Notes under the pieces: generated by a model | Databases searched by the model: none | What the model saw: the letters and a program-made list of their open reading frames with translations, nothing else | Told to the model about the DNA's origin: nothing | Assembly: GCF_058153355.1 (NCBI RefSeq) | Contig: NZ_CM177019.1 | Direction: 5' to 3' (one strand) | DNA: 64,000 bases | Shown here: in pieces, positions 20,700 through 44,680 of the stretch | Layout of the letters: every line of letters starts with the position of its first letter | How positions within the stretch are numbered: position 1 is the first letter of the stretch | Program-made: the position numbers and the translations under genes

Positions 20700-20872
20700 C
20701 TTAATGCACATCAACGGTTTGACGTACAGACCATTAAAGCAGTGTAGTAAGGCAAGTCCCTTCAAGAGTTATCGTTGATACCCCTCGTAGTGCATTTCCT
20801 TTAACGCTTCAAAATCTGTAAAGCACGCCATATCGCCGAAAGGCACATTTAAATTATTAAAGGTAATACACT
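20700..20872 (+). promoter_or_regulatory. cspA promoter and long 5' UTR (cold-box leader)
   Basis: Region immediately upstream of cspA ATG; known about 160-nt leader in E. coli; motifs not individually mapped. Confidence 0.5.
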
Positions 20873-21085
20873 ATGTCCGGTAAAATGACTGGTATCGTAA
20901 AATGGTTCAACGCTGACAAAGGCTTCGGCTTCATCACTCCTGACGATGGCTCTAAAGACGTGTTCGTACACTTCTCTGCTATCCAGAACGATGGTTACAA
21001 ATCTCTGGACGAAGGTCAGAAAGTGTCCTTCACCATCGAAAGCGGCGCTAAAGGCCCAGCAGCTGGTAACGTAACCAGCCTGTAA
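20873..21085 (+). CDS. cspA: major cold shock protein CspA
   Basis: 70 aa, [21 protein letters not shown]...; RNP1/RNP2 motifs. Confidence 0.97.
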
Positions 21086-21111
21086 TCTCTGCTTAAAAGC
21101 ACAGAATCTAA

Positions 21112-21141
21112 GATCCCTGCCAAATGGCGGGGATTTTTTTA
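21112..21141 (+). terminator. cspA intrinsic terminator
   Basis: Hairpin atccctgccaaatggcgggga followed by ttttttt. Confidence 0.65.
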
Positions 21142-21273
21142 TTTGTTTATTCAGGAAATGAATAATCGTTCGCGTAATAAAATCTATTATTATTTTTGTG
21201 AAGAATAAATTTGGGTGCAATGAGAATGCGCAACGCCGTAAGAAAGGCGGGAATAACTTCCCGCCGAAGACTC

Positions 21274-21426
21274 TTACTCTTTCAATTTGCAGGCTAAAAA
21301 CGCCGCCAGCTCATAATTCTCCTGTTTAATATGCAATTCACACAGTGAATCTCTTATCATCCAGGTGAAAAATAAAAGCGTGAAACAAATCACTATTAAA
21401 GAAAGTAATCTATATTTCTGCGGCAT
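21274..21426 (-). CDS. hokA: Hok-family type I toxin HokA
   Basis: 50 aa MPQKYRLLSLIVICFTLLFFTWMIRDSLCELHIKQENYELAAFLACKLKE; single TM; the ORF track extends it upstream in-frame. Confidence 0.85.
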   Translation of the reverse strand: MPQKYRLLSLIVICFTLLFFTWMIRDSLCELHIKQENYELAAFLACKLKE

Positions 21427-21703
21427 TCCCAGCCTCCTGTGTTGATTTCCAACGAGTAAGAGGCTAACCTTATGGTGTTCAGGCATAGGGTAGCCTCACT
21501 TTGATTTATAGTCAGGTGGGGCTTTTCTCTGTCTGCCTTTCGGTGAATACCTGAGACAAACAGTCTCAAGCACCCGTGGCTATTCTAGCTTAATAAGTTC
21601 TTTTCTTCTCCTTGATATAATCCTAAAAAAATCTCATAAAATTAATATATGAGACAATCTTTATTCAGCAGAAGATTATTAAAGGTTGCTCTATTATTTA
21701 GCG

Positions 21704-25315: not shown

Positions 25316-26311
25316 ATGCAGCCCAAAATTTACTGGATTGATAACCTGCGAGGGATAGCGTGTTTAATGGTGGTGATGATTCACACCACAACCTGGTATG
25401 TGACCAATGCTCATAGTGTTAGCCCCGCTACCTGGGATATCGCCAATGTTCTGAATTCTGCCTCTCGTGTCAGCGTGCCGCTATTTTTCATGATTTCCGG
25501 CTATCTCTTTTTTGGCGAACGCAGCGCCCAGCCGCGCCATTTCTTACGTATCGGCTTATGTCTGCTTTTTTATAGCGCAATCGCACTGCTCTACATTGCG
25601 CTGCTTACCTCCATCAATGTGGAGTTAGCGCTGAAAAACCTGCTGCAAAAGCCAGTGTTTTACCACTTATGGTTTTTCTTCGCGATTGCGGTGATTTATC
25701 TGGTTTCACCGCTGATTCAGGTGAAGAACGTTGGCGGAAAAATGTTGCTGGTACTAATGGTGGTGATTGGTATTATCGCTAACCCAAACACAGTGCCGCA
25801 GAAAATTGACGGTTTTGAATGGCTGCCAATTAACTTATATATCAATGGCGATACTTTTTACTACATCCTGTATGGCATGTTGGGCCGCGCTATAGGGATG
25901 ATGGACACACAGCATAAAGCACTGTCGTGGGTGTGCGCCGCACTGTTTGCGACGGGGGTTTTTATTATCTCTCGCGGGACATTATATGAATTGCAGTGGC
26001 GCGGAAATTTTGCCGATACCTGGTATCTTTACTGTGGGCCGATGGTTTTTATCTGCGCAATCGCACTATTGACTCTGGTTAAAAATACGCTGGATACACA
26101 CACTGTTCCCGGGCTTGGGCTGATATCACGCCATTCTTTAGGTATATACGGGTTCCACGCATTGATTATCCATGCGCTGCGTACCCGGGGGATTGAGCTT
26201 AAAAACTGGCCAATACTGGATATTATTTGGATCTTTTGCGCGACGTTGGCAGCGAGTTTGTTACTTTCTATGCTGGTACAACGAATCGACAGAAACAGAC
26301 TAGTGAGTTAA
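25316..26311 (+). CDS. wecH: membrane O-acetyltransferase WecH (acyltransferase 3 family)
   Basis: 331 aa multi-TM acyltransferase-3 protein. Confidence 0.85.
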
Positions 26312-26314
26312 ATA

Positions 26315-26346
26315 AAAGCCCGGTCACATTGGACTGACCGGGCTTA
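26315..26346. terminator. bidirectional terminator between wecH and yiaA
   Basis: Hairpin aaagcccggtcacattggactgaccgggctt. Confidence 0.5.
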
Positions 26347-26352
26347 TGTGAA

Positions 26353-26782
26353 TTATTCGCTGTATTCTTCCTGGGTAACCTGTGTTTCTTTTGGTGGGTT
26401 TATTCCGGCATCACGAATATTCTTCTGCACCGCTACTGCACCAAACAAGCTTAAGAAGAAAGCCAGTCCATAAAAACCTTTCTCGCTGAGTAATAACGTC
26501 GCATTCCACAGACCTACCATCAGTAACGCAACAGAGATAATAAAGACAGTCAGGCAGGTCATATAATAAATGGAGGTGGTCGGTATGCCTTCATACTTGT
26601 CCCGAACGGTCTTTTGATAAGATGCCGCAGAAAACAGTCCTAGCACCAGCACGGCAAAATAATATCCTTTTTCATTTAACTGCATCTCTGCATTCCATAG
26701 CCCTAACAGATAGGTAACGATACCACCAACAAGAGCTATCCATGACACAATACTAAATGCCGGAGAATAGGTTGATATTTTG
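26353..26782 (-). pseudogene. yiaA: yiaA inner membrane protein gene, 5' end severed by IS66-family insertion
   Basis: Encodes YiaA from residue 6 (KISTYSPAF...) to the C-terminus; codons 1-5 (ATG GAC AAC AAA ATA) lie on the other side of the IS at 29253-29267. Confidence 0.75.
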
Positions 26783-26857
26783 GTAAGCGTCTTATCAGGA
26801 CCGTCTGGCAAATTCCCGATGCTTTGGACAAAGTATCCACCACTAAATTAATAGTGG

Positions 26858-27286
26858 GTGATAAAAATGTCAGATATACAAAAAAATGCCTCTCCGGGAA
26901 GGCCTAAAGGGTGCCTGAATTATCCTCCTGAATTCAAACAACGACTCATAGAAGCATCATTCCAGCCAGGTGTTTCAATTTCCAGACTGGCCCTGGACAA
27001 TGGTATTAATGCCAATCTGTTGTTCAAATGGCGTCAGAAATGGCGGCAGGGGAAGATAAAATTGCCATCATCAGAATCAGGCAGAGAATCTCAGTTAATT
27101 CCTGTCACTATTGATGCCCAACTCCCAACTGCTCCGGCTAATGAGCCACTGACCGCAAGACCGTCAGTAACACCGGAAATACACAGCATCTCCTGTGAGA
27201 TTACGTTCAGAAACGGCACCCTTCGGTTGAACGGGGCAGTGAATGAAAATCTGCTGTCCTTGCTTATACAGGAGCTGAGACGGTGA
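26858..27286 (+). CDS. IS66-family accessory protein TnpA (orfA)
   Basis: 142 aa; small HTH-like first ORF of the IS66 operon; 4-bp overlap with orfB. Confidence 0.8.
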   Translation: MIKMSDIQKNASPGRPKGCLNYPPEFKQRLIEASFQPGVSISRLALDNGINANLLFKWRQKWRQGKIKLPSSESGRESQLIPVTIDAQLPTAPANEPLTARPSVTPEIHSISCEITFRNGTLRLNGAVNENLLSLLIQELRR

Positions 27287-27630
27287 TATCTCTCCCTGCA
27301 GGTTCGCGTATCTGGCTGGTTGCAGGTATCACCGATATGCGAAATGGCTTTAACGGCCTGGCCTCAAAAGTTCAGAACGTCCTGAAGGATGACCCGTTCT
27401 CCGGGCATCTGTTCATCTTCCGCGGACGCCGGGGTGACCAGATAAAAGTGTTGTGGGCTGACAGTGACGGACTGTGCCTCTTCACCAGACGCCTGGAGCG
27501 GGGCCGCTTCGTCTGGCCGGTCACCCGTGACGGCAAGGTGCACCTTACTCCGGCCCAGTTATCCATGCTTCTTGAGGGCATCGACTGGAAACACCCGAAA
27601 CGAACGGAACGCGCTGGCATCCGCATATAA
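27283..27630 (+). CDS. IS66-family accessory protein TnpB (orfB)
   Basis: 115 aa, MISLPAGSRIWLVAGITDMRNGFNGLA..., typical IS66 Orf2. Confidence 0.85.
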   Translation: MISLPAGSRIWLVAGITDMRNGFNGLASKVQNVLKDDPFSGHLFIFRGRRGDQIKVLWADSDGLCLFTRRLERGRFVWPVTRDGKVHLTPAQLSMLLEGIDWKHPKRTERAGIRI

Positions 27631-27649
27631 CCCGTTGTAAAGTGAGGAT

Positions 27650-29221
27650 ATGGACACCTCACTTGCTCATGAGAATGCCCGCCTGCGGGCACTGTTGCAG
27701 ACGCAACAGGACACCATCCGCCAGATGGCGAAATACAACCGCCTGCTCTCACAGCGGGTGGCGGCTTATGCTTCCGAAATCAACCGGCTGAAGGCGCTGG
27801 TTGCAAAACTGCAGCGCATGCAGTTCGGTAAAAGCTCAGAAAAACTTCGTGCAAAAACCGAACGGCAGATACAGGAAGCACAGGAGCGAATCAGCGCTCT
27901 TCAGGAAGAAATGGCGGAAACGCTGGGTGAGCAATATGACCCGGTACTGCCATCTCCCCTGCGCCAGTCTTCAGCCCGTAAACCGTTACCTGCCTCACTT
28001 CCCCGTGAAACCCGGGTCATCCGTCCGGAAGAGGAATGCTGCCCGGCCTGTGGTGGCGAACTCAGTTCTCTGGGATGTGATGTGTCAGAGCAACTGGAGC
28101 TTATCAGCAGCGCCTTTAAGGTTATCGAAACACAACGTCCGAAACTGGCCTGTTGCCGGTGCGACCATATCGTGCAGGCTCCGGTGCCTTCAAAACCCAT
28201 TGCACGCAGTTATGCCGGAGCGGGGCTTCTGGCCCATGTTGTCGCTGGAAAATATGCAGACCATCTGCCGTTATACCGCCAGTCAGAAATATACCGTCGT
28301 CAGGGCGTGGAGCTGAGCCGTGCCACACTGGGGCGCTGGACAGGTGCTGTTGCTGAACTGCTGGAACCGCTGTATGACATCCTGCGCCAGTATGTGCTGA
28401 TGCCCGGTAAAGTCCATGCCGATGATATCCCCGTTCCGGTCCAGGAGCCGGGCAGCGGTAAAACAAGGACTGCCCGGCTGTGGGTCTACGTTCGTGATGA
28501 CCGTAACGCCGGTTCGGAAATGCCTCCGGCGGTCTGGTTCGCGTACAGCCCGGACCGGAAAGGTATCCATCCACAGAATCATCTGGCCGGTTACAGCGGA
28601 GTGCTTCAGGCCGATGCTTACGGTGGTTACCGGGCGTTGTACGAATCCGGCAGAATAACGGAAGCCGCATGTATGGCTCATGCCCGGAGAAAAATCCACG
28701 ATGTGCATGCAAGAGTGCCCACCGACATCACCACGGAAGCCCTGCAGCGTATCGGTGAACTGTATGCCATCGAGGCAGAGGTCCGGGGCTGTTCAGCAGA
28801 ACAGCGTCTGGCGGCAAGAAAAGCCAGAGCCGCGCCACTGATGCAGTCACTGTATGACTGGATACAGCAACAGATGAAAACACTGTCGCGTCACTCGGAC
28901 ACGGCAAAAGCGTTCGCATACCTGCTGAAACAGTGGGATGCACTGAACGTGTACTGCAGTAATGGCTGGGTGGAAATCGACAACAACATCGCAGAGAACG
29001 CCTTACGGGGAGTGGCCGTAGGCCGGAAAAACTGGCTCTTCGCGGGTTCTGACAGCGGTGGTGAACATGCTGCGGTGTTGTACTCGCTGATCGGCACATG
29101 CCGTCTGAACAATGTGGAGCCAGAAAAGTGGCTGCGTTACGTCATTGAACATATCCAGGACTGGCCGGCAAACCGGGTACGCGATCTGTTGCCCTGGAAA
29201 GTTGATCTGAGCTCTCAGTAA
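27650..29221 (+). CDS. IS66-family transposase (orfC)
   Basis: 523 aa; N-terminal coiled coil/leucine zipper, CxxC zinc motifs (CCPACGG, CCRCDH), DDE domain. Confidence 0.88.
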
Positions 29222-29312
29222 ATATCAATACGGTTCTGGCGAGCCGCTTACATATTTTGTTGTCCATCACAGTATTCCTTTCATTCCTGAATGTGTAAGA
29301 GCTTTATGTTGC

Positions 29313-29654
29313 TCATGCCGGGCGAAACAAACGCATTTGACCAAACAAGCAGACAAAAAAGGCGATAGGGTAGATCACCATTTCATAAGCATTGATAGGT
29401 GCGTTTAAAACACCGATAAACAAGAGACCGATAGTGATTAACGCAACTAACTGGCAGATGTGAATAAAAAAATCATCCAGTTGCCCGAGTTTTTCTGCGC
29501 GAAGATATGCATAGTTGCTAAAAGTTGCCGTCATTAACACGCCAAGAAAATAGCCTTTTCCACTTAACAATGGGCATGAGATCCATAGCCCAAGCAGATA
29601 AACCAGCGCCCCGACAACAAATAATAGTTTTGCCACAGTCTTTGAGGTTTTCAT
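29313..29654 (-). CDS. yiaB: inner membrane protein YiaB (YiaA paralog)
   Basis: ORF 29313-29696; start MKTSKTVAKLLFVVG at internal ATG gives 113 aa. Confidence 0.8.
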   Translation of the reverse strand: MKTSKTVAKLLFVVGALVYLLGLWISCPLLSGKGYFLGVLMTATFSNYAYLRAEKLGQLDDFFIHICQLVALITIGLLFIGVLNAPINAYEMVIYPIAFFVCLFGQMRLFRPA

Positions 29655-29821
29655 AACGATCTCCATATCTACCAGCGATACATTACGAGTAACCAACGAA
29701 AGACAAAACTGAAAAATGCCATTAACAAATGATTTCAGAATAAATTCATACTAAATATTAATTAATTACTGATATATATAGATGTGAATTATCCCCCACC
29801 CGGTCAGGCAGGGGATAACGT

Positions 29822-31276
29822 TTACGCCATTAATGGCAGAAGTTGCTGATAGAGGCGACGGAACGTTTCACGTCGTGGCTGATAAGTGGCATAACGCTGC
29901 GCATCTGGTAAATGCGACTGTTCTAACGGCAGTTGTGGCAACAACTCAATGAGCGATTTCTCTGGATTCGCCACAATCTGCGCCAGCCTTGCTGCGCCCA
30001 GTGCTGGCCCCACATCCCCCCCCGTGCGGTAATCGAGTTGCTGACCGCTGATATCCGCCAGCATCTGACGCCAGTACTCACTACGCGCCCCGCCACCAAT
30101 CAACGTAACACTTTGCGGTTTAATGCCGCAGGCATGCACGACATCCATGCCATCTGCCAGCGCATAACCCACGCCTTCCAGCACTGCTCGCGCCAGTTCA
30201 TTGGGGCCATGTTGATGAGTCAAACCAAAGAAAACCCCCTTCGCCTGGGGATTATTGTGTGGTGTACGCTCGCCGGAAAGATAAGGCAGAAACCAAACTG
30301 GCTCGGCACTTTCATCAGCCTGTTGAGCAGCCGCGATTAAAGCTGGGACATTGTTCAGGCCCGTTAATTTCGCGGCCCAATCCAGACACGACGCTGCACT
30401 CAGCATCACAGACATTAAATGCCAACGCTGCGGGAGCGCATGGCAAAAGCTGTGTACGGCGCTTTCTGGCTTGCTTAAGAACCCTTCGCTGACAGCAAAA
30501 TAGACCCCCGACGTCCCCAGCGATAACATTGCCTGATTAGCATCAACCATTCCTACACCAACCGCACCAGCTGCATTATCACCACCGCCTGCGACAACTG
30601 GCACTGCCGCCATACCCCACGCTTTCGCAACTTCAGGTAGCAAAGCACCAGTAATTTCGCTGCCTTCGTATAATGCGGGCATCTGGTCACGAGATAAGTG
30701 GCAAGCCTGCAGCATGACGTCACTCCAGTCACGCTTTGCGACATCCAGCCACATGGTGCCAGCTGCGTCAGACATATCGCTGGCAAACTCCCCCGTCATA
30801 CGCAGACGCAAGTAATCTTTCGGTAATAATACTTTGTCGATTTGACGGAATATCTCCGGCTCATGCCGCTGAACCCATAGCAATTTAGGCGCAGTAAATC
30901 CGGGCATCATCAGGTTACCGGTAATCACCCGTGATTGCGGAACTCGCGCTTCCAGCAAAGTGCACTCTTGCGCACAGCGCCCGTCGTTCCACAAAATGGC
31001 AGGGCGTAATACCCGTTGCTGGGCATCCAGTAAGGTTGCACCGTGCATCTGGCCGGCAATACCCAATGCTTTAACGTCCTGCAGAGAATGCTGATCGCCC
31101 AGAGCTTTCATTGCGCGATCAGTTGCCTGCCACCACTGTTCCGGGTCTTGTTCCGACCAGAGTGGATGCGGGCGCGAAACGGTCAGCTTTTCCGTTTGCG
31201 AAGCAACCACCTCACCCTGCTCGTTGAGCAAAATAACTTTTACGCCCGAGGTGCCAAGATCTATCCCGATATACAT
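29822..31276 (-). CDS. xylB: xylulokinase
   Basis: 484 aa FGGY-family kinase, MYIGIDLGTSGVKV... Confidence 0.95.
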   Translation of the reverse strand: MYIGIDLGTSGVKVILLNEQGEVVASQTEKLTVSRPHPLWSEQDPEQWWQATDRAMKALGDQHSLQDVKALGIAGQMHGATLLDAQQRVLRPAILWNDGRCAQECTLLEARVPQSRVITGNLMMPGFTAPKLLWVQRHEPEIFRQIDKVLLPKDYLRLRMTGEFASDMSDAAGTMWLDVAKRDWSDVMLQACHLSRDQMPALYEGSEITGALLPEVAKAWGMAAVPVVAGGGDNAAGAVGVGMVDANQAMLSLGTSGVYFAVSEGFLSKPESAVHSFCHALPQRWHLMSVMLSAASCLDWAAKLTGLNNVPALIAAAQQADESAEPVWFLPYLSGERTPHNNPQAKGVFFGLTHQHGPNELARAVLEGVGYALADGMDVVHACGIKPQSVTLIGGGARSEYWRQMLADISGQQLDYRTGGDVGPALGAARLAQIVANPEKSLIELLPQLPLEQSHLPDAQRYATYQPRRETFRRLYQQLLPLMA

Positions 31277-31347
31277 ATCGATCGTTCCTTAAAAAAATGC
31301 CCGGTATCGCTACCGATAACCGGGCCAACGGACTGCACAGTTAGCCG

Positions 31348-32670
31348 TTATTTGTCGAACAGATAATGGTTTACCAGATTTTCCAGTTGCTCCTGGCGAC
31401 CACTCTGATGCACCGGAGACAAATTATGTTCCTGAGCATATTTGGCTAAATCTGCCAGTGACATTTGGCCTTTCAGGATTTGCTGGCCTAATTCGCTATT
31501 CCAGCCGGAATAACGCTGCGCGATGCGTTTATCCAGCTCGCCATCTTCAATCATGCGTGCTGCAATTTTCAGCGCCAACGCCATCGTATCCATCGCGCCG
31601 ATATGACCGTAAAACAGATCATATTTATCAGTACTTTGACGACGGACTTTGGCATCGAAGTTCAGACCGCCGGTGGTGAAACCGCCTGCTTTGAGAATTT
31701 CATACATCACCAGCGCATTCTCTTCCACACTGTTCGGGAACTGGTCGGTGTCCCAGCCCAGTTGTGCATCGCCACGGTTGGCGTCGACAGAACCGAACAG
31801 GCCAAGCGCAATGGCGGTGGCTATTTCATGATGGAAAGAGTGACCTGCCAGCGTCGCGTGGTTAGCTTCAATGTTCAGTTTAATCTCTTTTTCCAGACCA
31901 AACTGTTTCAGGAAGCCATACACCGTCGCGGCATCGTAATCATATTGATGTTTAGTCGGTTCTTGCGGTTTCGGTTCGATAAGCAACGTCCCCTGGAAAC
32001 CGATTTTATGTTTATGCTCAACCACCATTTGCATAAAGCGGCCCAGTTGTTCACGCTCCTGACGCAAGTCGGTATTTAACAGCGTTTCGTAACCTTCACG
32101 ACCGCCCCACAGGACATAGTTTTCACCGCCCAATTTATGGGTTGCTTCCATCGCTGTAACAACTTGAGTTGCCGCCCAACTAAAGACTTCTGGATCTGGG
32201 TTCGTCGCCGCACCCGCACCGTAGCGAGGGTTTGTAAAGCAGTTAGCGGTTCCCCACAGCAGCTTCACGCCGCTCTCTTCTTGCTTGCCTGCCAGGACAT
32301 CAACCATTTGCGCAAAATTATTGATGTACTCTTTTAACGACGCGCCCTCAGGGGAAACATCCACATCGTGGAAGCAATAAAATGGCACATGTAATTTGTG
32401 GAAAAACTCAAATGCGACATCTGCTTTACGCTTCGCCAACGACAGTGCCTCACCAGGCTGCTGCCACGGACGATTAAACGCCCCCACACCAAACATGTCC
32501 GCCCCGTTCCAGCAGAAGGTGTGCCAGTAGCAGGCGGCAAAACGCAAGTGCTCTTCCATACGCTTGCCCAACACCAGTTCGTCGGGATTGTAGTGACGGA
32601 ATGCTAACGGGTTAGTGGATTTTGAGCCTTCATAACGAACGCGATCGAGCTGGTCAAAATAGGCTTGCAT
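31348..32670 (-). CDS. xylA: xylose isomerase
   Basis: ORF 31348-32682; start [15 protein letters not shown] at internal ATG gives 440 aa. Confidence 0.95.
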
Positions 32671-33035
32671 ATTGAACTCCATAATCAGGTAATGCCGCGG
32701 GTGATGGATGATGTCGTAATATTGGGCACTCCCTTTCAGTTGCTCAATTATGTTATTTCACACTGCTATTGAGATAATTCACAAGTGTGCGCTCGCTCGC
32801 AAAATAAAATGGAATGATGAAACTGGGTAATTCCTCGAAGAGAAAAATGCAATAAGTACAATTGCGCAACAAAAGTAAGATCTCTGTCATAAATCAAGAA
32901 ATAAACCAAAAATCGTAATCGAAAGATAAAAATCTGTAATTGTTTTCCCCTGTTTAGTTGCTAAAAATTGGTTACGTTTATCGCGGTGATTGTTACTTAT
33001 TAAAGCTGTCCTCTAACTACAGAAGGCCCTACACC
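32671..33035. promoter_or_regulatory. divergent xylAB / xylFGH promoter region (XylR and CRP control)
   Basis: 365-bp AT-rich divergent intergenic region; assignment by position and established xyl regulon architecture; sites not individually mapped. Confidence 0.5.
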
Positions 33036-34028
33036 ATGAAAATAAAGAACATTCTACTCACCCTTTGCACCTCACTTCTGCTTACCAACGTTGCGGCGCA
33101 CGCCAAAGAAGTCAAAATAGGTATGGCGATTGATGATCTCCGTCTTGAACGCTGGCAAAAAGATCGAGATATCTTTGTGAAAAAGGCAGAATCTCTCGGC
33201 GCGAAAGTATTTGTACAGTCTGCAAATGGCAATGAAGAAACACAAATGTCGCAGATTGAAAACATGATTAACCGGGGTGTCGATGTTCTTGTCATTATTC
33301 CGTATAACGGTCAGGTATTAAGTAACGTTGTAAAAGAAGCCAAACAAGAAGGTATTAAAGTATTAGCTTACGACCGTATGATTAACGATGCGGATATCGA
33401 TTTTTATATTTCTTTCGATAATGAAAAAGTCGGTGAACTGCAGGCAAAAGCCCTGGTCGATATTGTTCCGCAAGGTAATTACTTCCTGATGGGCGGTTCG
33501 CCGGTAGATAACAACGCTAAGCTGTTCCGCGCCGGACAAATGAAAGTGTTAAAACCTTACGTTGATTCCGGAAAAATTAAAGTCGTTGGTGACCAATGGG
33601 TTGATGGCTGGTTACCGGAAAACGCACTGAAAATTATGGAAAACGCGCTGACCGCCAATAATAACAAAATTGATGCCGTGGTTGCCTCAAACGATGCCAC
33701 CGCCGGCGGGGCAATTCAGGCATTAAGCGCGCAAGGTTTATCAGGGAAAGTAGCAATATCCGGCCAGGATGCGGATCTCGCAGGTATTAAACGTATTGCT
33801 GCCGGTACGCAAACTATGACGGTGTATAAACCTATTACATTGTTGGCAAATACTGCCGCAGAAATTGCCGTTGAGTTGGGCAATGGTCAGGAACCAAAAG
33901 CAGATACCACACTGAATAATGGTCTGAAAGATGTTCCCTCCCGCCTGCTGACACCGATCGATGTGAATAAAAACAACATCAAAGATACGGTAGTTAAAGA
34001 CGGATTCCACAAAGAGAGCGAGCTGTAA
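33036..34028 (+). CDS. xylF: D-xylose ABC transporter periplasmic binding protein
   Basis: ORF 32958-34028; start MKIKNILLTLCTSLLLTNVAAHA (signal peptide) at ATG 33036 gives 330 aa. Confidence 0.93.
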   Translation: MKIKNILLTLCTSLLLTNVAAHAKEVKIGMAIDDLRLERWQKDRDIFVKKAESLGAKVFVQSANGNEETQMSQIENMINRGVDVLVIIPYNGQVLSNVVKEAKQEGIKVLAYDRMINDADIDFYISFDNEKVGELQAKALVDIVPQGNYFLMGGSPVDNNAKLFRAGQMKVLKPYVDSGKIKVVGDQWVDGWLPENALKIMENALTANNNKIDAVVASNDATAGGAIQALSAQGLSGKVAISGQDADLAGIKRIAAGTQTMTVYKPITLLANTAAEIAVELGNGQEPKADTTLNNGLKDVPSRLLTPIDVNKNNIKDTVVKDGFHKESEL

Positions 34029-34105
34029 GCGTTACGCCCCGGCACAGAGCGGGGGCGTGATTTCTCTCCATGCCGTGTAAATTAATTGGCTTAGGTGGAG
34101 TCGTT

Positions 34106-35647
34106 ATGCCTTATCTACTTGAAATGAAGAACATTACCAAAACCTTCGGCAGTGTGAAGGCAATTGATAACGTTAGCTTGCGGTTGAATGCCGGCGAAAT
34201 CGTCTCACTCTGCGGGGAAAATGGGTCTGGTAAATCAACGCTGATGAAAGTGCTGTGTGGTATTTATCCCCATGGCTCCTACGAAGGCGAAATTATTTTT
34301 GCGGGAGAAGAGATTCAGGCGAGTCACATCCGCGATACCGAACGCAAAGGTATCGCCATCATTCACCAGGAATTGGCCCTGGTGAAAGAATTGACCGTGC
34401 TGGAAAATATCTTCCTGGGTAACGAAATAACCCATAATGGCATTATGGATTATGATCTGATGACGCTACGCTGTCAGAAGCTGCTCGCACAGGTCAGTTT
34501 ATCCATTTCACCAGATACCCGCGTTGGCGATTTAGGGCTTGGGCAACAACAACTGGTTGAAATTGCCAAGGCACTTAATAAACAGGTGCGTTTGTTAATT
34601 CTCGATGAGCCGACAGCCTCATTAACTGAGCAGGAAACGTCGGTTTTACTGGATATTATTCGCGATCTACAACAGCACGGTATCGCCTGTATTTATATTT
34701 CGCACAAACTCAACGAAGTCAAAGCGATTTCCGATACGATTTGCGTTATTCGCGACGGTCAGCACATTGGTACGCGTGATGCTGCCGGAATGAGTGAAGA
34801 CGATATTATCACCATGATGGTCGGGCGAGAGTTAACCGCGCTTTACCCTAATGAACCACATACCACCGGAGATGAAATATTACGTATTGAACATCTGACG
34901 GCATGGCATCCGGTTAATCGTCATATTAAACGAGTTAATGATGTCTCGTTTTCCCTGAAACGTGGCGAAATACTGGGTATTGCCGGACTCGTTGGTGCCG
35001 GACGTACCGAGACCATTCAGTGCCTGTTTGGCGTGTGGCCCGGACAATGGGAAGGAAAAATTTATATTGATGGCAAACAGGTAGATATTCGTAACTGTCA
35101 GCAAGCCATCGCCCAGGGGATTGCGATGGTACCCGAAGACAGAAAGCGCGACGGCATCGTTCCGGTAATGGCGGTTGGTAAAAATATTACCCTCGCCGCA
35201 CTCAATAAATTTACCGGCGGTATTAGCCAGCTTGATGACGCGGCAGAGCAAAAATGTATTCTGGAATCAATCCAGCAACTCAAAGTTAAAACGTCGTCCC
35301 CCGACCTTGCTATTGGACGTTTGAGCGGCGGCAATCAGCAAAAAGCGATCCTCGCTCGCTGTCTGTTACTCAACCCGCGCATTCTCATTCTTGATGAACC
35401 TACCAGGGGTATCGATATTGGCGCGAAATACGAGATCTACAAATTAATTAACCAACTCGTCCAGCAGGGTATTGCCGTTATTGTCATCTCTTCCGAATTA
35501 CCTGAAGTGCTCGGCCTTAGCGATCGTGTACTGGTGATGCATGAAGGGAAACTAAAAGCCAACCTGATAAATCATAACCTGACTCAGGAGCAGGTGATGG
35601 AAGCCGCATTGAGGAGCGAACATCATGTCGAAAAGCAATCCGTCTGA
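34106..35647 (+). CDS. xylG: D-xylose ABC transporter ATP-binding protein
   Basis: ORF 34070-35647; start [12 protein letters not shown] at ATG 34106 gives 513 aa; duplicated ABC domains. Confidence 0.93.
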
Positions 35648-36806
35648 AGTGAAATTGGCCGTACCGACATCCGGTGGCTTTTCCGGGCTGAAGTCACTGA
35701 ATTTGCAGGTCTTCGTGATGATTGCAGCTATCATCGCAATCATGCTGTTCTTTACCTGGACCACCGATGGTGCCTACTTAAGCGCCCGTAACGTCTCCAA
35801 CCTGTTACGCCAGACCGCGATTACCGGCATCCTCGCGGTAGGAATGGTGTTCGTCATAATTTCTGCTGAAATCGACCTTTCCGTCGGCTCAATGATGGGG
35901 CTATTAGGTGGCGTCGCGGCGATTTGTGACGTCTGGCTAGGCTGGCCTTTGCCACTTACCATCATTGTGACGTTGGTTCTGGGACTGCTTCTCGGTGCCT
36001 GGAACGGATGGTGGGTTGCATACCGCAAAGTCCCTTCATTTATTGTCACCCTCGCGGGCATGTTGGCATTTCGCGGCATACTCATTGGCATCACCAACGG
36101 CACGACTGTATCCCCCACCAGCGCCGCGATGTCACAAATCGGGCAAAGCTATCTACCCGCCAGCACCGGCTTCATCATTGGCGCGCTTGGCTTAATGGCT
36201 TTTGTTGGCTGGCAATGGCGCGGAAGAATGCGCCGTCAGGCTTTGGGTTTGCAGTCTCCGGCCTCTACCGCAGTTGTCGGTCGCCAGGCATTAACGGCGA
36301 TTATCGTCTTAGGCGCAATCTGGCTGTTGAACGATTACCGTGGCGTTCCCACTCCTGTTCTGCTGCTGACGTTGCTGTTACTCGGCGGAATGTTTATGGC
36401 AACGCGGACGGCATTTGGAAGACGCATTTATGCCATCGGCGGCAATCTGGAAGCAGCACGGCTCTCCGGGATTAACGTTGAACGCACCAAACTTGCCGTG
36501 TTCGCTATTAACGGATTAATGGTAGCCATCGCCGGATTAATCCTCAGTTCTCGACTTGGCGCAGGTTCACCTTCTGCGGGAAATATCGCCGAACTGGACG
36601 CAATTGCCGCATGTGTGATTGGCGGCACCAGTCTGGCAGGCGGAGTCGGGAGCGTGGCCGGAGCAGTAATGGGGGCATTCATCATGGCTTCACTGGATAA
36701 CGGCATGAGTATGATGGATGTACCGACCTTCTGGCAGTATATCGTTAAAGGTGCGATTCTGTTGCTGGCAGTATGGATGGACTCCGCAACCAAACGCCGT
36801 TCTTGA
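35625..36806 (+). CDS. xylH: D-xylose ABC transporter permease
   Basis: 393 aa multi-TM permease overlapping xylG stop. Confidence 0.93.
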
Positions 36807-36825
36807 TTTTGATAAAAATTTTCTC

Positions 36826-36859
36826 AAAACCGGTAACGTATTACCGGTTTTGAGTTTTT
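36826..36859 (+). terminator. xylFGH intrinsic terminator
   Basis: Hairpin aaaaccggtaacgtattaccggtttt followed by gagttttt. Confidence 0.6.
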
Positions 36860-36883
36860 GCATGATTCAGCAGGAAAAGAACC

Positions 36884-38062
36884 ATGTTTACTAAACGTCA
36901 CCGCATCACATTGCTGTTCAATGCTAATAAAGCCTATGACCGTCAGGTAGTAGAAGGCGTAGGGGAATATTTACAGGCGTCACAATCGGAATGGGATATT
37001 TTCATTGAAGAAGATTTCCGCGCCCGCATTGATAAAATCAAGGACTGGTTAGGAGATGGCGTCATTGCCGACTTCGATGACAAACAAATCGAGCAAGCAC
37101 TGGCTAACGTCGACGTCCCCATTGTTGGGGTTGGTGGTTCGTATCACCTTGCCGAAAGTTACCCACCCGTTCATTACATTGCCACCGATAACTATGCACT
37201 GGTTGAAAGCGCATTTTTGCATTTAAAAGAGAAAGGCGTTAACCGCTTTGCTTTTTATGGTCTTCCGGAATCCAGCGGCAAACGTTGGGCCACTGAACGC
37301 GAATATGCATTCCGTCAGCTTGTCGCCGAAGAAAAGTATCGCGGAGTGGTTTATCAGGGGTTAGAAACAGCGCCAGAGAACTGGCAACACGCGCAAAATC
37401 GGCTGGCAGACTGGCTACAAACGCTGCCGCCGCAAACCGGGATCATTGCCGTTACTGACGCCCGGGCGCGGCACATTCTGCAAGTATGCGAACATCTGCA
37501 TATTCCTGTGCCGGAAAAATTATGTGTGATTGGCATCGATAACGAAGAACTTACCCGCTATCTGTCGCGTGTCGCTCTTTCTTCGGTCGCTCAGGGCGCG
37601 CGGCAAATGGGATATCAGGCGGCAAAACTGTTGCATCGATTATTAGATAAAGAAGAAATGCCGCTACAGCGGATTTTGGTCCCACCAGTTCGCGTCATTG
37701 AACGGCGCTCAACAGATTACCGTTCGCTGACCGATCCCGCCGTTATTCAGGCCATGCATTACATTCGTAATCACGCCTGTAAAGGGATTAAAGTGGATCA
37801 GGTACTCGATGCCGTCGGGATCTCTCGCTCCAATCTTGAGAAGCGTTTTAAAGAAGAGGTGGGTGAAACCATCCATGCCATGATTCATGCCGAGAAGCTG
37901 GAAAAAGCGCGCAGTCTGCTGATTTCAACCACCTTATCGATCAATGAGATATCGCAAATGTGCGGTTATCCATCGCTGCAATATTTCTACTCTGTTTTTA
38001 AAAAAGCATATGACACGACGCCAAAAGAGTATCGCGATGTAAATAGCGAGGTCATGTTGTAG
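36884..38062 (+). CDS. xylR: xylose operon AraC-family transcriptional activator
   Basis: 392 aa; periplasmic-binding-like sensor domain plus C-terminal AraC HTH. Confidence 0.93.
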   Translation: MFTKRHRITLLFNANKAYDRQVVEGVGEYLQASQSEWDIFIEEDFRARIDKIKDWLGDGVIADFDDKQIEQALANVDVPIVGVGGSYHLAESYPPVHYIATDNYALVESAFLHLKEKGVNRFAFYGLPESSGKRWATEREYAFRQLVAEEKYRGVVYQGLETAPENWQHAQNRLADWLQTLPPQTGIIAVTDARARHILQVCEHLHIPVPEKLCVIGIDNEELTRYLSRVALSSVAQGARQMGYQAAKLLHRLLDKEEMPLQRILVPPVRVIERRSTDYRSLTDPAVIQAMHYIRNHACKGIKVDQVLDAVGISRSNLEKRFKEEVGETIHAMIHAEKLEKARSLLISTTLSINEISQMCGYPSLQYFYSVFKKAYDTTPKEYRDVNSEVML

Positions 38063-38077
38063 CGATGATGAGAATTG

Positions 38078-38160
38078 TCGGCGTCGCATCAGGCAACGCT
38101 GCGTGGTTGTCGCATGCGACGTGAACGCCTTATCCGACCAACAAGTCGGATAAGGCTTCA
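38078..38160. repeat. REP elements between xylR and bax
   Basis: Palindromic units gcgtcgcatcaggcaacgctgcg... / gcgacgtgaacgccttatccgacc. Confidence 0.6.
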
Positions 38161-38170
38161 GGGAATACAA

Positions 38171-38995
38171 TTACATATGCGCCGCGATTAACCGTTGGTT
38201 ATCCTGGTACATTGCGAACAGGTAGTTGTTATAACTCTTCCCTTTGGTCGAGTAGCCCTTCAGCTTGTGAATCATCGCTGTGGCAGTCACTTCCTGATCC
38301 GCTTTACGCAGTTGTGCACGCGATTTACGGAACGAAGAGTAAGCCGGGTGAGTATTCAGGTTAGTGACATAGGCGCTCACCGATTCTTTGACAGAACTAA
38401 ACTGTGAGTACCCCTTCACTTTACCCGGCGCATTGGTACAACGTCCTTTCATGCACTTCATGCCGAATAGGTTGTTGTTGCTACGCGCCAGCTTCGACGT
38501 TCCCCAACCGCTTTCTGCTGCAGCCATCGTCGCCACCATACTGGTAGGAATAATGTCTACGCGTTCCAGCAAGGTATTCCACGGGATTTTTCGCGTATTA
38601 CCAGACCACTTCACCTTGTAGCGTTTGGCGATGTCTTTCAGACGCGCACGCTCAGCAGGTGACCATTGGCCCTGATACTGTTTTGAAATGAGCCAGTTAC
38701 GTTCCTCAGTAATGGCCGCATTTTGGCTGGTAATGTAAGGCATTACGGTCCGGAGAAACGCTTTTTTCCTTGGTGTTCCGGAAGGGTATTTTCGCAAATC
38801 AGGAAGTGAACTACTCTTTGCACTATTGCGAGAATACTCTTGTTTACTGCTTACCTGTTTATTACTAGCTTTAATTAAGTGGGACTTTTGACTCGCTGTT
38901 GTTGTGTGCGTCTTCGCTAACACCTCACTCGAAAACACCAGAGTGAGTAACATAAGAATCATCGCCCCATATCGTCGTATGGGAGTCAAAATCAT
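38171..38995 (-). CDS. bax: Bax protein (putative glucosaminidase domain)
   Basis: 274 aa with signal peptide and C-terminal glucosaminidase-like domain. Confidence 0.85.
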   Translation of the reverse strand: MILTPIRRYGAMILMLLTLVFSSEVLAKTHTTTASQKSHLIKASNKQVSSKQEYSRNSAKSSSLPDLRKYPSGTPRKKAFLRTVMPYITSQNAAITEERNWLISKQYQGQWSPAERARLKDIAKRYKVKWSGNTRKIPWNTLLERVDIIPTSMVATMAAAESGWGTSKLARSNNNLFGMKCMKGRCTNAPGKVKGYSQFSSVKESVSAYVTNLNTHPAYSSFRKSRAQLRKADQEVTATAMIHKLKGYSTKGKSYNNYLFAMYQDNQRLIAAHM

Positions 38996-39219
38996 CAGGT
39001 CTCCTGGTCGGATTTAATCATTCCAACACCTTATATTTTTCACAAATTTGAGAGTTGAATCTCAAATCATATCAAAAATAGCCGTCAAGAGCACCCCAAG
39101 GAATAGTCCAAATCTGAAACTATGTCACGTGTTAACGATTCAGATTGGCGCTAAATCGCAGAAAATGTGGGGTTTATCGCAAAATTCAGCCGTTTTTTGC
39201 GCGCGATCGCTCACCCTTG

Positions 39220-39256
39220 CTTCTCATCCTGTGGACTTACCGCTCAGGGATGAGTT
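39220..39256 (+). promoter_or_regulatory. malS promoter region with MalT-box-like GGATGA motifs
   Basis: ctcatcc (39223-39229, reverse GGATGAG) and gggatgag (39248-39255) 60-90 bp upstream of the malS ATG. Confidence 0.45.
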
Positions 39257-39314
39257 TTGTCTAGCTTATCGCTGGCAAACTGTCTGAAATCGCAGCAATA
39301 AGGACTCATCCGCC

Positions 39315-41345
39315 ATGAAACTCGCCGCCTGTTTTCTGACACTCCTTCCTGGCTTCGCCGTTGCCGCCAGCTGGACTTCTCCGGGGTTCCCTGCCTTTAG
39401 CGAACAGGGAACGGGAACATTTGTCAGCCACGCGCAGTTGCCCAAAGGTACGCGTCCACTAACGCTAAATTTTGACCAACAGTGCTGGCAGCCTGCGGAT
39501 GCGATAAAACTCAATCAGATGCTTTCCCTGCAACCTTGTAGCAACACGCCACCTCAATGGCGATTGTTCAGGGACGGCGAATATACGCTGCAACTAGACA
39601 CCCGCTCCGGTACACCAACATTGATGATTTCCATCCAGAACGCCGTCGAACCGGTAGCAAGCCTGGTCCGTGAATGCCCGAAATGGGATGGATTACCGCT
39701 CACACTGGATGTCAGCGCCACTTTTCCGGAGGGAGCCGCAGTCCGGGATTATTACAGCCAGCAAATTGCGATAGTGAAGAACGGTCAAATAACGTTACAA
39801 CCCGCTGCCACCAGCAACGGTTTACTCCTGCTGGAACGGGCAGAAACTGACACATCCGCCCCTTTCGACTGGCATAACGCCACGGTTTACTTTGTGCTGA
39901 CAGATCGTTTCGAAAACGGCGATCCCAGTAATGACCAGAGTTACGGACGCCATAAAGACGGTATGGCAGAAATTGGAACTTTTCACGGCGGCGATTTACG
40001 CGGCCTGACCAACAAACTGGATTACCTCCAGCAGCTGGGCGTCAATGCTTTATGGATAAGTGCCCCATTTGAGCAAATTCACGGCTGGGTCGGCGGCGGT
40101 ACAAAAGGCGATTTCCCGCATTATGCCTACCACGGTTATTACACACAGGACTGGACGAATCTTGATGCCAATATGGGCAGCGAAGCCGATCTCCGGACGC
40201 TGGTTGATAGCGCGCATCAGCGCGGTATTCGTATTCTCTTTGATGTCGTGATGAACCACACCGGCTATGCCACACTGGCGGATATGCAGGAGTATCAGTT
40301 TGGCGCGTTATACCTTTCTGGTGATGAGCTGAAAAAAACGTTAGGTGACCGCTGGAGCGACTGGAAGCCCGCCGCCGGGCAAACCTGGCATAGCTTTAAC
40401 GATTACATTAATTTCAGCGACAAAACAGGCTGGGATAAATGGTGGGGAAAAAACTGGATCAGAACGGATATCGGCGACTACGACAATCCTGGATTTGACG
40501 ATCTCACCATGTCGCTGGCCTTTTTACCGGATATCAAAACCGAATCAACTACCGCTTCTGGCCTGCCAGTGTTCTATAACAACAAAACGGATACCCACGC
40601 TAAAGCCATTGACGGCTTTACCCCTCGAGATTACTTAACCCATTGGTTAAGCCAGTGGGTCCGTGACTACGGAATTGATGGTTTTCGGGTCGATACCGCC
40701 AAGCATGTTGAGTTGCCCGCCTGGCAGCAACTGAAAACCGAAGCCAGCGCCGCACTTCGCGAATGGAAAAAAGCGAATCCCGATAAAGCGTTAGATGACA
40801 CACCGTTCTGGATGACCGGTGAAGCCTGGGGCCACGGCGTGATGCAAAGTGACTACTATCGCCACGGCTTCGATGCGATGATCAATTTCGATTATCAGGA
40901 GCAGGCGGCTAAAGCAGTCGATTGTCTGGCGCAGATGGATACGACCTGGCAGCAAATGGCAGAGAAATTGCAGGATTTCAACGTGTTGAGCTATCTTTCG
41001 TCGCATGATACCCGCCTGTTTCGTGAAGGGGGCGACAAAGCAGCAGAGTTATTGTTATTAGCGCCAGGCGCAGTACAAATCTTTTATGGTGATGAATCCT
41101 CTCGTCCGTTCGGTCCTACCGGTTCTGATCCGCTGCAAGGCACGCGTTCGGATATGAACTGGCAGGATGTTAACGGTAAATCTGCCGCTAGCGTCGCGCA
41201 CTGGCAGAAAATCAGCCAGTTCCGCGCCCGCCATCCCGCAATTGGCGCGGGCAAACAAACGACACTTTCGCTGAAGCAGGGCTACGGCTTTGTTCGTGAG
41301 CATGGCGACGATAAAGTGCTGGTCATCTGGGCTGGGCAACAGTGA
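39315..41345 (+). CDS. malS: periplasmic alpha-amylase
   Basis: 676 aa; signal peptide; GH13 catalytic motifs (GFRVDTAKH, FDVVMNHTG). Confidence 0.95.
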   Translation: MKLAACFLTLLPGFAVAASWTSPGFPAFSEQGTGTFVSHAQLPKGTRPLTLNFDQQCWQPADAIKLNQMLSLQPCSNTPPQWRLFRDGEYTLQLDTRSGTPTLMISIQNAVEPVASLVRECPKWDGLPLTLDVSATFPEGAAVRDYYSQQIAIVKNGQITLQPAATSNGLLLLERAETDTSAPFDWHNATVYFVLTDRFENGDPSNDQSYGRHKDGMAEIGTFHGGDLRGLTNKLDYLQQLGVNALWISAPFEQIHGWVGGGTKGDFPHYAYHGYYTQDWTNLDANMGSEADLRTLVDSAHQRGIRILFDVVMNHTGYATLADMQEYQFGALYLSGDELKKTLGDRWSDWKPAAGQTWHSFNDYINFSDKTGWDKWWGKNWIRTDIGDYDNPGFDDLTMSLAFLPDIKTESTTASGLPVFYNNKTDTHAKAIDGFTPRDYLTHWLSQWVRDYGIDGFRVDTAKHVELPAWQQLKTEASAALREWKKANPDKALDDTPFWMTGEAWGHGVMQSDYYRHGFDAMINFDYQEQAAKAVDCLAQMDTTWQQMAEKLQDFNVLSYLSSHDTRLFREGGDKAAELLLLAPGAVQIFYGDESSRPFGPTGSDPLQGTRSDMNWQDVNGKSAASVAHWQKISQFRARHPAIGAGKQTTLSLKQGYGFVREHGDDKVLVIWAGQQ

Positions 41346-41521
41346 CTTTCCGGCTTCCCGTTCGTCAGTACCTCGGGAAGCCGCCAACCAGGATAAAATG
41401 TCAGCCCTAATCAGAGTTGCAGGATAAAGCACCGCTCCCTCTTCAACAGAGCGATTTGCACCCCAGCAAATGTAGCGTTATTGTTACCTTCCTTGCTACA
41501 GAGTTCGACAGATATCCCGCT

Positions 41522-42775: not shown

Positions 42776-42780
42776 AAATT

Positions 42781-44029
<1,249 letters not shown>

Positions 44030-44059
44030 CATGCCTGCAATCTGGGAAACCGGGGTAGA

Positions 44060-44090
<31 letters not shown>

Positions 44091-44124
44091 TCATTTCTGC
44101 AATATATTGAATTTGGAATAATTT

Positions 44125-44158
44125 GTAGGCCGGATAAGGCGTTTAAGCCGCATCCGGC
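44125..44158. repeat. REP element downstream of IS621 copy 2
   Basis: gtaggccggataaggcgtttaagccgcatccggc palindromic unit. Confidence 0.6.
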
Positions 44159-44206
44159 ATAAACAAAGCGCACTATTCCTGCGTTAAAAAACGCCGGAAA
44201 AACGTT

Positions 44207-44680
44207 TCAAACAGACTGCTGCCGTAGCCGATGCCGCTGCACTTTCTCGACATCCATGCATTGCAACGCTTGTGTTGGGCAAGCTTCAACACAAGCCGGT
44301 CCCGTCGCCCGATGCCAGCACAGATCGCACTTAATCGCCCTCGCCTTTGTGCGTGAAGAAACGACCTCCATCGCACCAAACGGGCAAGCCAGCATACAGC
44401 TTTTACAGCCAATACAACGTGATTGTTCAACGAAAATATGCCCATGTTCGCGACTTATCGCGTCAACAGGGCACACATTTGCGCTCGGTGCATCTTCACA
44501 CTGATGACAGGCTACTGCCGTGGTGTAAGTATGATCTTTAATGACACGAATACGCGAAATAAACTCACCGGGTGACAACGCAGCGCAATCCTGATTCTCC
44601 TGATGCGACACTGCGCAAGCCACTTCACAGGTACGGCAACCGATACATTTCGTCGCATCCGCAATAATAAACCGGTTCAT
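44207..44680 (-). CDS. ysaA: 4Fe-4S ferredoxin-type protein YsaA
   Basis: 157 aa; four CxxCxxCxxxCP cluster motifs. Confidence 0.85.
   Translation of the reverse strand: MNRFIIADATKCIGCRTCEVACAVSHQENQDCAALSPGEFISRIRVIKDHTYTTAVACHQCEDAPSANVCPVDAISREHGHIFVEQSRCIGCKSCMLACPFGAMEVVSSRTKARAIKCDLCWHRATGPACVEACPTQALQCMDVEKVQRHRLRQQSV

Follow-up and report, generated by a model that had tools for sequence, protein, structure and literature searches.

What is left of yiaA, and of its expression, when an insertion sequence lies close behind its start codon? yiaA is a non-essential membrane-protein gene of E. coli, the function of which is not known. In the 64 kb stretch of DNA analysed here, referred to below as the window, the gene is split. 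The most probable reading, to which we assign a probability of about 0.93, is that an IS66-family element recently inserted after codon 5 of yiaA and produced a null or near-null allele. The event is an ordinary insertion mutation. In a divergent lineage of E. coli, a 2,469 bp IS66-family element, a relative of ISCro1 with another left end and tnpA, moved into the chromosomal yiaA; integration duplicated an 8 bp target, ATATTTTG, and the element landed after codon 5.

Architecture of the split yiaA locus

Positions 26783-29251 hold an intact IS66-family element, the sole copy within the window, with its three genes on the plus strand and thus antisense to yiaA (Table 1). The first-pass annotation had described a 2469-bp IS66-type element with three open reading frames, and it was right on both counts: the length is exact and all three proteins score above their NCBIfam cut-offs. 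The clean 8-bp target duplication that it reported was borne out by direct reading of the letters. The match between the two copies of ATATTTTG ends at 8 bp on both sides, and exactly 2,469 bp separates them. The octamer occurs only 5 times on the plus strand of the window, and the chance recurrence of a given 8-mer at one pre-specified position is ~1.5e-5. Codons 1-5 of yiaA had been placed at 29253-29267 on the minus strand, cut off from the gene; here the reverse complement ATGGACAACAAAATA indeed reads MDNKI. The remainder of the gene had been assigned to 26353-26782. These coordinates stand, but not their description as the rest of the gene: 26776-26782 is duplicated sequence, and the physical break lies inside codon 6, after its first base.

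Table 1 Features of the yiaA locus and of the inserted element
Feature	Position	Strand	Basis or remark
Terminator-like hairpin after yiaA, between convergent yiaA and wecH	26316..26345	-	Terminator scan, ORF layout
Promoterless yiaA body: codons 6-145, stop, duplicated bases of codons 3-5	26353..26782	-	PRK11383
Hypothetical TTG-start fusion ORF, 152 aa; probably not expressed	26353..26811	-	ORF list
Target-site duplication ATATTTTG, left copy, 8 bp	26775..26782		Single in empty-site relatives L016, L017, L002
IRL GTAAGCGTCTTATCAGGACCGTCTGG	26783..26808	+	19/26 versus right end, first 7 perfect; ends identical in L003, L012, L013
Stable hairpin over tnpA ribosome-binding site and start codon	26827..26871	+	-15.5 kcal/mol, z = -4.0
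tnpA, 139 aa accessory protein, helix-turn-helix; alternative GTG at 26858	26867..27286	+	NCBIfam NF047595
tnpB, 115 aa IS66 accessory protein, GTG start	27283..27630	+	NCBIfam NF033819
tnpC, 523 aa DDE transposase	27650..29221	+	NCBIfam NF033517
Orphaned yiaA start: ATG 29267 and five codons running into antisense IS	29142..29267	-	ATG = R32_14_1F annotated start
IRR, terminating CGCTTAC	29226..29251	+	Position-by-position end comparison
Target-site duplication ATATTTTG, right copy, 8 bp	29252..29259		Direct reading
yiaB, intact upstream neighbour	29313..29654	-	Mapped from R32_14_1F annotation

The comparison with an IS-free yiaA-yiaB, which the first-pass annotation had proposed as its check, shows the split directly. 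Once the element and a single octamer are taken out, yiaA-yiaB matches the empty site of E. coli R32_14_1F at 100% identity across 600 bp, and the restored protein of 145 aa is identical to YiaA of K-12 (YIAA_ECOLI). The yiaA annotated in R32_14_1F is 438 bp long, and its start ATG corresponds to window position 29267. Since the restored protein is identical to YiaA and the annotated ATG corresponds to 29267, the insertion lies after codon 5. The alignment of the window to intact yiaA terminates exactly at 26782, and in the empty-site relatives L016 and L017 the flank matches overlap by exactly 8 bp. The same comparison upholds the claim that the body of yiaA has been detached from its promoter and start codon, to which the ribosome-binding site can be added.

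We also looked at the case that had been named as fatal to this account, i.e. a yiaA that normally starts downstream of the insertion, and rejected it. The annotation of R32_14_1F starts yiaA at the native ATG, the native ATG of the window has a Shine-Dalgarno match spaced 7 nt from it, and the NCBIfam model PRK11383 (197.6 bits for the remnant, cut-off 150) aligns from native YiaA residue 9, which is upstream of the next in-frame start, a GTG at codon 15. Intact YiaA homologues carry Pfam YiaAB (inner membrane protein, YiaAB two-helix-domain family).

The surrounding gene order, wecH / yiaA / yiaB / xylB next to xylAB, is that of R32_14_1F and of other genomes. The native promoter of yiaA must be situated within yiaB or just behind it; yiaB and yiaA have been handled as separate transcription units (PMC10127797). 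With wecH convergent and no further gene downstream of yiaA, a polar effect is not to be expected.

Fate of the yiaA remnant

The insertion leaves the promoter, the ribosome-binding site, the ATG and five codons 2.5 kb away from the body of yiaA, where they would drive only a 41-residue junk peptide (MDNKI followed by 36 residues, with a stop at 29142-29144). The 140-codon body would be left with neither a recognisable promoter nor a usable translation start, and for this reason we predict a simple null or near-null allele: yiaA has almost certainly been switched off.

The reading that competes best with this one, although we hold it to be improbable, is that yiaA is still active, with transcription from or through the left IS end and translation from a TTG at 26811 giving an N-terminally altered YiaA. 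The first-pass annotation had suggested such a TTG-start fusion and a read-out from the IS, and the open reading frame it pointed to is present in the sequence. It is open and in frame, and in it 10 residues replace MDN and are followed by YiaA residues 4-145; as the model aligns from native residue 9 onward, all of the conserved core is retained. GGGA stands directly before the TTG. The expression signals, however, speak against its use in promoter, spacing and hairpin alike. On the minus strand, no outward sigma-70-like site with at least 9/12 matches was found in a crude consensus scan, which could miss a weak or non-sigma-70 promoter; when 8/12 was accepted, outward candidates appeared only 100 bp or more into tnpA, and these are upstream of a hairpin. 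Pairing at the Shine-Dalgarno-like GGGA stops 1 nt short of the TTG, compared to 7 nt at the native ATG, and TTG initiates translation weakly. A further argument against the fusion is the inverted repeat over the tnpA start, which on the minus strand forms a terminator-like hairpin ahead of the TTG (site 26857..26837). Altogether 8 terminator-like sites, all on the minus strand, were scored in 26300-29800, against 3.4 +/- 1.9 expected. Before reaching the remnant, transcription from yiaB would have to extend over 2.5 kb as untranslated antisense RNA. In the sole published test, insertion of ISCro1 lowered, rather than raised, adjacent transcription (PMC8764528). The exact 152 aa fusion protein has no record in the protein collection; a gene call of '152 aa' in contig L018 was rejected as support for the TTG start, since it is incomplete and continues past the contig end. 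Low-level expression, by which the in-frame TTG would let the strain make an altered but functional YiaA, is the less likely outcome.

Age of the insertion and other lesions in yiaA

Among 5,426 complete E. coli genomes, the uninterrupted site is covered in 5,314, across all identity bands, and the insertion junction is found in 0. Relatives that are ~99.3% identical have an empty site, which shows that the insertion is recent and makes the site usable as a lineage marker. Both junctions recur in a separate public read set, SRR31441161, although it may derive from the isolate of the window and so be less than fully independent: two of its contigs match at 100% identity, over 7.5 kb and 8.1 kb, and stop 29 nt within the respective IS ends. 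A contig of GCA_043012465.1 breaks at 26780. These data bear on two further readings, both of which we regard as having almost no chance of being correct. An assembly artefact would have misplaced a repeat into yiaA, and repeats of such kind commonly cause misjoins; the IS is apparently multicopy in SRR31441161, given that the contigs break 29 nt inside both of its ends, but contigs that were assembled separately carry both junctions with 100% identity, the break in a second assembly falls on the same base, and an exact 8 bp duplication whose removal restores a perfect open reading frame is the signature of transposition, not of a misjoin. An element ancestral at this site, with the empty sites produced by precise excision, has no specific support and is opposed by the genome counts, by the empty ~99.3% identical relatives and by the 99.8% identity of the IS to a plasmid copy, as expected of a recent arrival. 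An ancestral element would leave insertion-bearing genomes basal and widespread, the reverse of the distribution seen.

The recent insertion in yiaA has parallels, in that the gene is independently damaged in other E. coli and Shigella genomes. In the yiaA::IS1 alleles of other E. coli lineages (L006), an IS likewise inserted, independently, within the first dozen codons, and the contigs of L007-L010 break at the same base as the L006 IS1 insertion. These alleles differ from the present allele in the element, in its position (~codon 10, ~20 bp downstream) and in the background, with flanks ~97% identical. In L004, yiaA has a 2 bp deletion (frameshift). The 131 aa, GTG-start yiaA calls in 149 contigs were considered as a sign of widespread truncation, but this was rejected: they partly reflect a start choice on an intact gene (L005), and the remainder are real lesions (the IS1 in L006 and the 2 bp deletion in L004). 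With no function known for yiaA and independent damage to it elsewhere, we predict no phenotype. The correct annotation of yiaA in the window is a pseudogene interrupted by an IS66-family element, rather than a protein of 131 aa or 152 aa; beyond correct annotation, the importance of the allele is small.

The element and its relatives

The element has a TnpC, a TnpB encoded upstream of tnpC, a tnpA that comes first with a stop overlap, an 8 bp duplication and inverted ends, all as in the IS66 family. TnpC scores 479.3 bits against NF033517 (cut-off 180) with 383/387 profile positions covered, and Pfam LZ_Tnp_IS66, zf-IS66, DDE_Tnp_IS66 and DDE_Tnp_IS66_C are recorded on a protein identical to it. 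TnpB scores 127.8 bits against NF033819 (cut-off 50), an identical protein carrying Pfam TnpB_IS66, and TnpA scores 88.8 bits against NF047595 (cut-off 74), with Pfam HTH_Tnp_1 recorded on an identical protein. A Shine-Dalgarno match precedes the tnpA ATG, the GTG start of tnpB overlaps the tnpA stop (GTGA, 27283-27286), and a 19 bp spacer separates the end of tnpB from tnpC. The ends were scored by direct position-specific comparison and form imperfect inverted repeats, perfect over their first 7 bases (7/7; GTAAGCG / CGCTTAC) and scoring 17/22 and then 19/26 over longer stretches. A general repeat search of 26700-29330 returned dozens of short chance repeats, among which the true terminal repeats went unranked. 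IS66-family elements have imperfect terminal inverted repeats of ~20-30 bp beginning GTAAGCG, a feature attributed to Han et al. 2001 and ISfinder, and the three-gene layout with GTAAGCG ends is reportedly described in Han et al. 2001 and Gourbeyre et al. 2010. The IS66 target duplication is reported as 8 bp (PMC6778807). The IS66 and IS679 prototypes are alike in tnpA-tnpB-tnpC order, 8 bp duplication and imperfect inverted ends, but are other members of the family than the window element.

ISCro1, an IS66-family element first named in Citrobacter rodentium and frequent in E. coli, is similar over part of the length. Bases 502-2469 of the window element (tnpB, tnpC and the right end) have ~97% DNA identity to it, and the ISCro1-type proteins are 97.4% (TnpB) and 98.7% (TnpC) identical to those of the window element. 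Gene order and the 19 bp tnpB-tnpC spacer are common to both, as is GTAAsCGTCT...ACCGTCT in the left ends. In contrast, the left 501 bp of the window element gave no detectable DNA similarity to ISCro1 in the search, the similarity switching exactly at the tnpA stop / tnpB start. ISCro1-type TnpA has 216 aa compared to 139 aa here, with 37.5% identity over 120 aa, and an ISCro1-type copy in L014 measures ~2,704 bp, so that the window element is ~235 bp shorter. That the window element is an ISCro1 isoform was ruled out, since similarity begins only at base 502 and TnpA is 77 residues shorter. Judged by TnpC alone (98.7%), the element would pass as ISCro1.

Intact copies of the element are rare. 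Full-length 2,469 bp copies with 95.7-95.9% identity reside on the E. albertii plasmids pESA134_1 and pESA134_2 (NZ_CP070285.2, NZ_CP070286.2), one of them (L012) at 95.9% with equal ends and length. A further copy, in GCA_047897835.1 (L003), an F-like plasmid contig from E. coli, is 99.8% identical, and all of these copies agree with the window element in length, ends and the three genes. The 30-base left end matched none of 100,044 species-representative genomes scanned, which likewise indicates that the element is rare. Two of the three plasmid copies have 8 bp duplications of their own, CACCGGAC (L003) and GAATAAGG (L012). The targets of the plasmid copies are inside a Tn3-family transposase gene or beside a serine-protease autotransporter gene, while the window copy is chromosomal, in yiaA. 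Judged from sequence, the element is probably a working unit, as it occupies three independent sites, each with its own 8 bp duplication, and near relatives are empty.

The location of the other intact copies, on conjugative-type plasmids, suggests a plasmid origin for the copy in yiaA. In a look-up of the neighbouring autotransporter protein, SRR31441161 was absent from the samples in which that protein occurs. Tentatively, the combination of an ISCro1-like transposase and TnpB with an unrelated, shorter TnpA, a diverged left end and clean transposition may mark an undescribed variant of the IS66 family, though we would put this at well below even odds. If so, tnpA plus the left end would be an interchangeable module in the IS66 family, and the two elements would form a natural pair for testing the role of the poorly understood TnpA. 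The wider interest of this rare element, in which an ISCro1-type transposase is joined to a different TnpA and left end, is limited to IS specialists.

Structure of the insertion and its empty site

The element has all the sequence-level defining features of the IS66 family that could be tested. Its ends are imperfect inverted repeats, matching at 7/7 positions over the first 7 bases and then at 17/22 and 19/26. The two copies of ATATTTTG are identical over 8 bp only, the next base differing on both sides, and 8 bp is the target duplication length reported for IS66 (PMC6778807). All three proteins score above the NCBI curated IS66 cut-offs (TnpA, 88.8 bits against 74; TnpB, 127.8 against 50; TnpC, the transposase, 479.3 against 180), and identical proteins carry the Pfam domains HTH_Tnp_1, TnpB_IS66 and four IS66 transposase domains. 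No second copy is present within the window. A stable plus-strand hairpin at 26827-26871 (-15.5 kcal/mol, z = -4.0) covers the Shine-Dalgarno/ribosome-binding site and start codon of tnpA; it may block translation of read-in transcripts, which would be a customary IS defence against read-in transcription. The hairpin stretch is near-invariant among related copies, which leaves covariation no power.

Features of the insertion and of the surrounding window
Feature	Position	Strand	Remarks
8 bp target-site duplication ATATTTTG	26775-26782 and 29252-29259		direct reading and scripted position check
IS66-family element	26783-29251		2,469 bp; start GTAAGCG, end CGCTTAC
tnpA	26867-27286	+	139 aa counted from ATG; Shine-Dalgarno match before ATG; alternative GTG at 26858
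tnpB	27283-27630	+	GTG start shares GTGA with tnpA stop
tnpC	27650-29221	+	
yiaA body	26353-26782	-	
TTG-start fusion ORF	TTG at 26811, inside left IS end	-	152 aa; 10-residue stretch replaces MDN
K-12-type RNA features	5620-5662, 7898-7979, 9272-9516, 20713-21575, 58134-58212		ordinary

An empty site of 600 bp was built by joining 26483-26782 to 29260-29559, i.e. with the element and one 8 bp copy removed. E. coli R32_14_1F matches it at 100%, and 5,314 of 5,426 complete E. coli genomes cover at least 80% of it. The annotation of R32_14_1F places yiaA (438 bp, "inner membrane protein YiaA") and yiaB here, with the yiaA ATG mapping to window position 29267. The restored YiaA of 145 aa is identical to the K-12 reference YIAA_ECOLI. 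The comparison with this IS-free strain agrees fully with the first-pass annotation, which had an IS66-family element splitting yiaA after codon 5 with a clean 8 bp duplication and whose coordinates all proved exact on direct reading and by script. Read on the minus strand, yiaA begins ATG GAC AAC AAA ATA T and then runs into the IS, so the break falls after codon 5 plus one base; the duplication covers the third base of codon 3, codons 4 and 5, and the first base of codon 6. With a 400 bp query centred on the left junction, 5,401 genomes matched the yiaA half only, ending exactly at 26782, and the junction itself was covered by none of the 5,426.

The insertion is genuine and took place recently, within a narrow lineage. 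Public contigs of the same lineage were found through the exact flanking XylB and WecH proteins. Two from SRR31441161 match the window at 100% over 7,496 and 8,054 bp and stop 29 bases into the IS, the first at its left end and the second at its right; both junctions are thus present in that read set, which may derive from the same isolate as the window, so that the independence of its support is not assured. A contig of GCA_043012465.1 breaks at 26780, with 1 mismatch in 7,465 bp. Contigs of GCA_029997195.1 and of an ENA metagenome, 99.2-99.4% identical to the flanks, have an intact 145 aa yiaA, and their alignments to the two flanks overlap by precisely the 8 bp.

Predicted fate of yiaA

The yiaA body had been described as cut off from its promoter and start codon, and it does now lie 2.5 kb from the native ATG. 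The genes of the element are antisense to yiaA, and the frame opened by the native start encodes MDNKI and then 36 residues from antisense IS sequence, up to a stop at 29142-29144.

The earlier proposal that a TTG start inside the IS end or IS-driven read-out could express the remnant was correct in that the 152 aa in-frame ORF exists, and the fusion would keep the whole conserved YiaA core, since the alignment to the curated YiaA model begins at native residue 9. Its expression signals, however, are poor and do not support it. A consensus scan of 26300-29800 found no sigma-70-like site on the minus strand, and a laxer one (8 of 12 matches) gave weak candidates only, inside tnpA at 26919-27094 and all upstream of a hairpin. 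Before the TTG, the best anti-Shine-Dalgarno pairing (-4.3 kcal/mol) stops 1 nt short of the codon; the values for the native ATG are -5.6 kcal/mol and 7 nt, and the next in-frame starts, GTG at 26748 and ATG at 26685, have practically no Shine-Dalgarno match. The inverted repeat at 26837-26857, which also forms the plus-strand hairpin over the tnpA ribosome-binding site, is rated terminator-like on the minus strand, and that strand carries all eight terminator-like sites in 26300-29800 (expected 3.4 +/- 1.9), mostly inside the IS. In the one published test of the element's nearest named relative, ISCro1 insertion lowered transcription and promoter activity of the adjacent afaA (PMC8764528). 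Judged by these signals, expression of the remnant through the TTG fusion or IS read-out is very improbable.

We conclude from sequence that the yiaA allele is probably null or nearly null. No polar effect is expected, because yiaA is regarded as a separate transcription unit with a promoter of its own (PMC10127797) and nothing lies beyond it but a terminator-like hairpin and the convergent wecH.

Relatives of the element

The element is already present and annotated in public records, namely E. albertii plasmids and E. coli drafts. As a whole it occurs in none of the complete E. coli genomes searched. Its bases 502-2469 (tnpB, tnpC and right end) have ~97% matches in thousands of these genomes, annotated as "IS66-like element ISCro1 family transposase", whereas the left 501 bp (left end and tnpA) have 93-96% matches in few records only. 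Those examined are truncated relics: one is chromosomal and adjoins a toxin-antitoxin pair (L001), and two directly follow the cof operon, for the CFA/III type IVb pilus, on E. coli plasmids of ~100 kb (L023/L024, 3501-4889). The 30-base left end was found in 0 of 100,044 species-representative genomes.

Identity with ISCro1 itself was rejected because the left 500 bp and tnpA differ. An ISCro1-type copy has TnpB and TnpC 97.4% and 98.7% identical to those of the element, but its TnpA is only 37.5% identical over 120 residues, the element's TnpA being 77 residues shorter; similarity switches exactly at the tnpA/tnpB boundary, and the left ends, GTAACCGTCTCATTTAAACCGTCT in ISCro1 and GTAAGCGTCTTATCAGGACCGTCT in the element, are related yet distinct. 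The description that fits it best is that of an ISCro1 relative carrying an alternative module for tnpA and the left end.

A search of plasmid records gave full-length 2,469 bp copies (95.7-95.9% identical) in just four, all of Escherichia albertii from bats. Proteins identical to the window copy's TnpA and TnpC are each recorded on one other contig, the F-like plasmid contig of E. coli GCA_047897835.1 (L003, 608-7485), where a gene for a serine-protease autotransporter of 1,363 aa is followed after 317 bp by an intact copy; traM and traJ lie farther out on that contig. Virulence-type plasmid genes were thus seen next to both copies and relics of this type of IS (L003, L023, L024). Copies with identical ends on L003 and on an E. 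albertii plasmid (L012) have their own 8 bp duplications, CACCGGAC and GAATAAGG, respectively, which indicates that the 2,469 bp unit moves as such. The full-length copy on E. albertii plasmid pESA134_2 (L013, 1501-3969) is without a duplication, its flanking 8-mers ATTTAACC and TTATGGGT being different, which suggests rearrangement between two IS copies on that plasmid.

The L003 and window copies are 99.8% identical, with five differences, all in tnpB. These cluster in 94 bp (27405-27498), leave the protein unaltered and show a mixed pattern of ISCro1-type or E. albertii-type bases. The cluster resembles a short patch of gene conversion between copies of the IS66 family.

Other yiaA lesions and the surrounding chromosome

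In kind, the window event is already known: it is an ordinary IS insertion mutation. Two lesions independent of it lie within the first 15 codons of yiaA, an IS1 near codon 10, flanked by a duplication of its own, CACCGGCC (L006, 3214-3986) and an allele with a 2 bp deletion (L004, about 4000). Four draft contigs (L007-L010) start or break at the same base as this IS1 site, and truncated YiaA forms of 110 aa and shorter are recorded for many Shigella and E. coli contigs. The yiaA 5' end is hit repeatedly across E. coli lineages. The gene is without an assigned function, and a literature search turned up incidental mentions only. Since yiaA has been damaged independently elsewhere, its knockout by an IS comes as no surprise, and a strong phenotype is unlikely.

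Divergence of the chromosome around the insertion is unusually high and uneven: among the 5,426 complete E. coli genomes, identity reaches at best only 96.3% for window 1-25000, 98.1% for 29260-49259 and 99.0% for 49000-64000, and each segment has a different best-matching strain. The pattern is suggestive of a deep or recombinant lineage of E. coli. Window 49000-64000, which holds genes for a glycoside hydrolase of family 127 and an MFS transporter near lyxK, yiaV and aldB, is a variable accessory segment, covered to at least 80% in only 829 of 5,413 matching genomes. The RNA features of the window are ES036 sRNA, two naRNA4 copies, RtT adjoining tRNA-Pro(CGG), the cspA thermoregulator and sok of a hok/sok locus.
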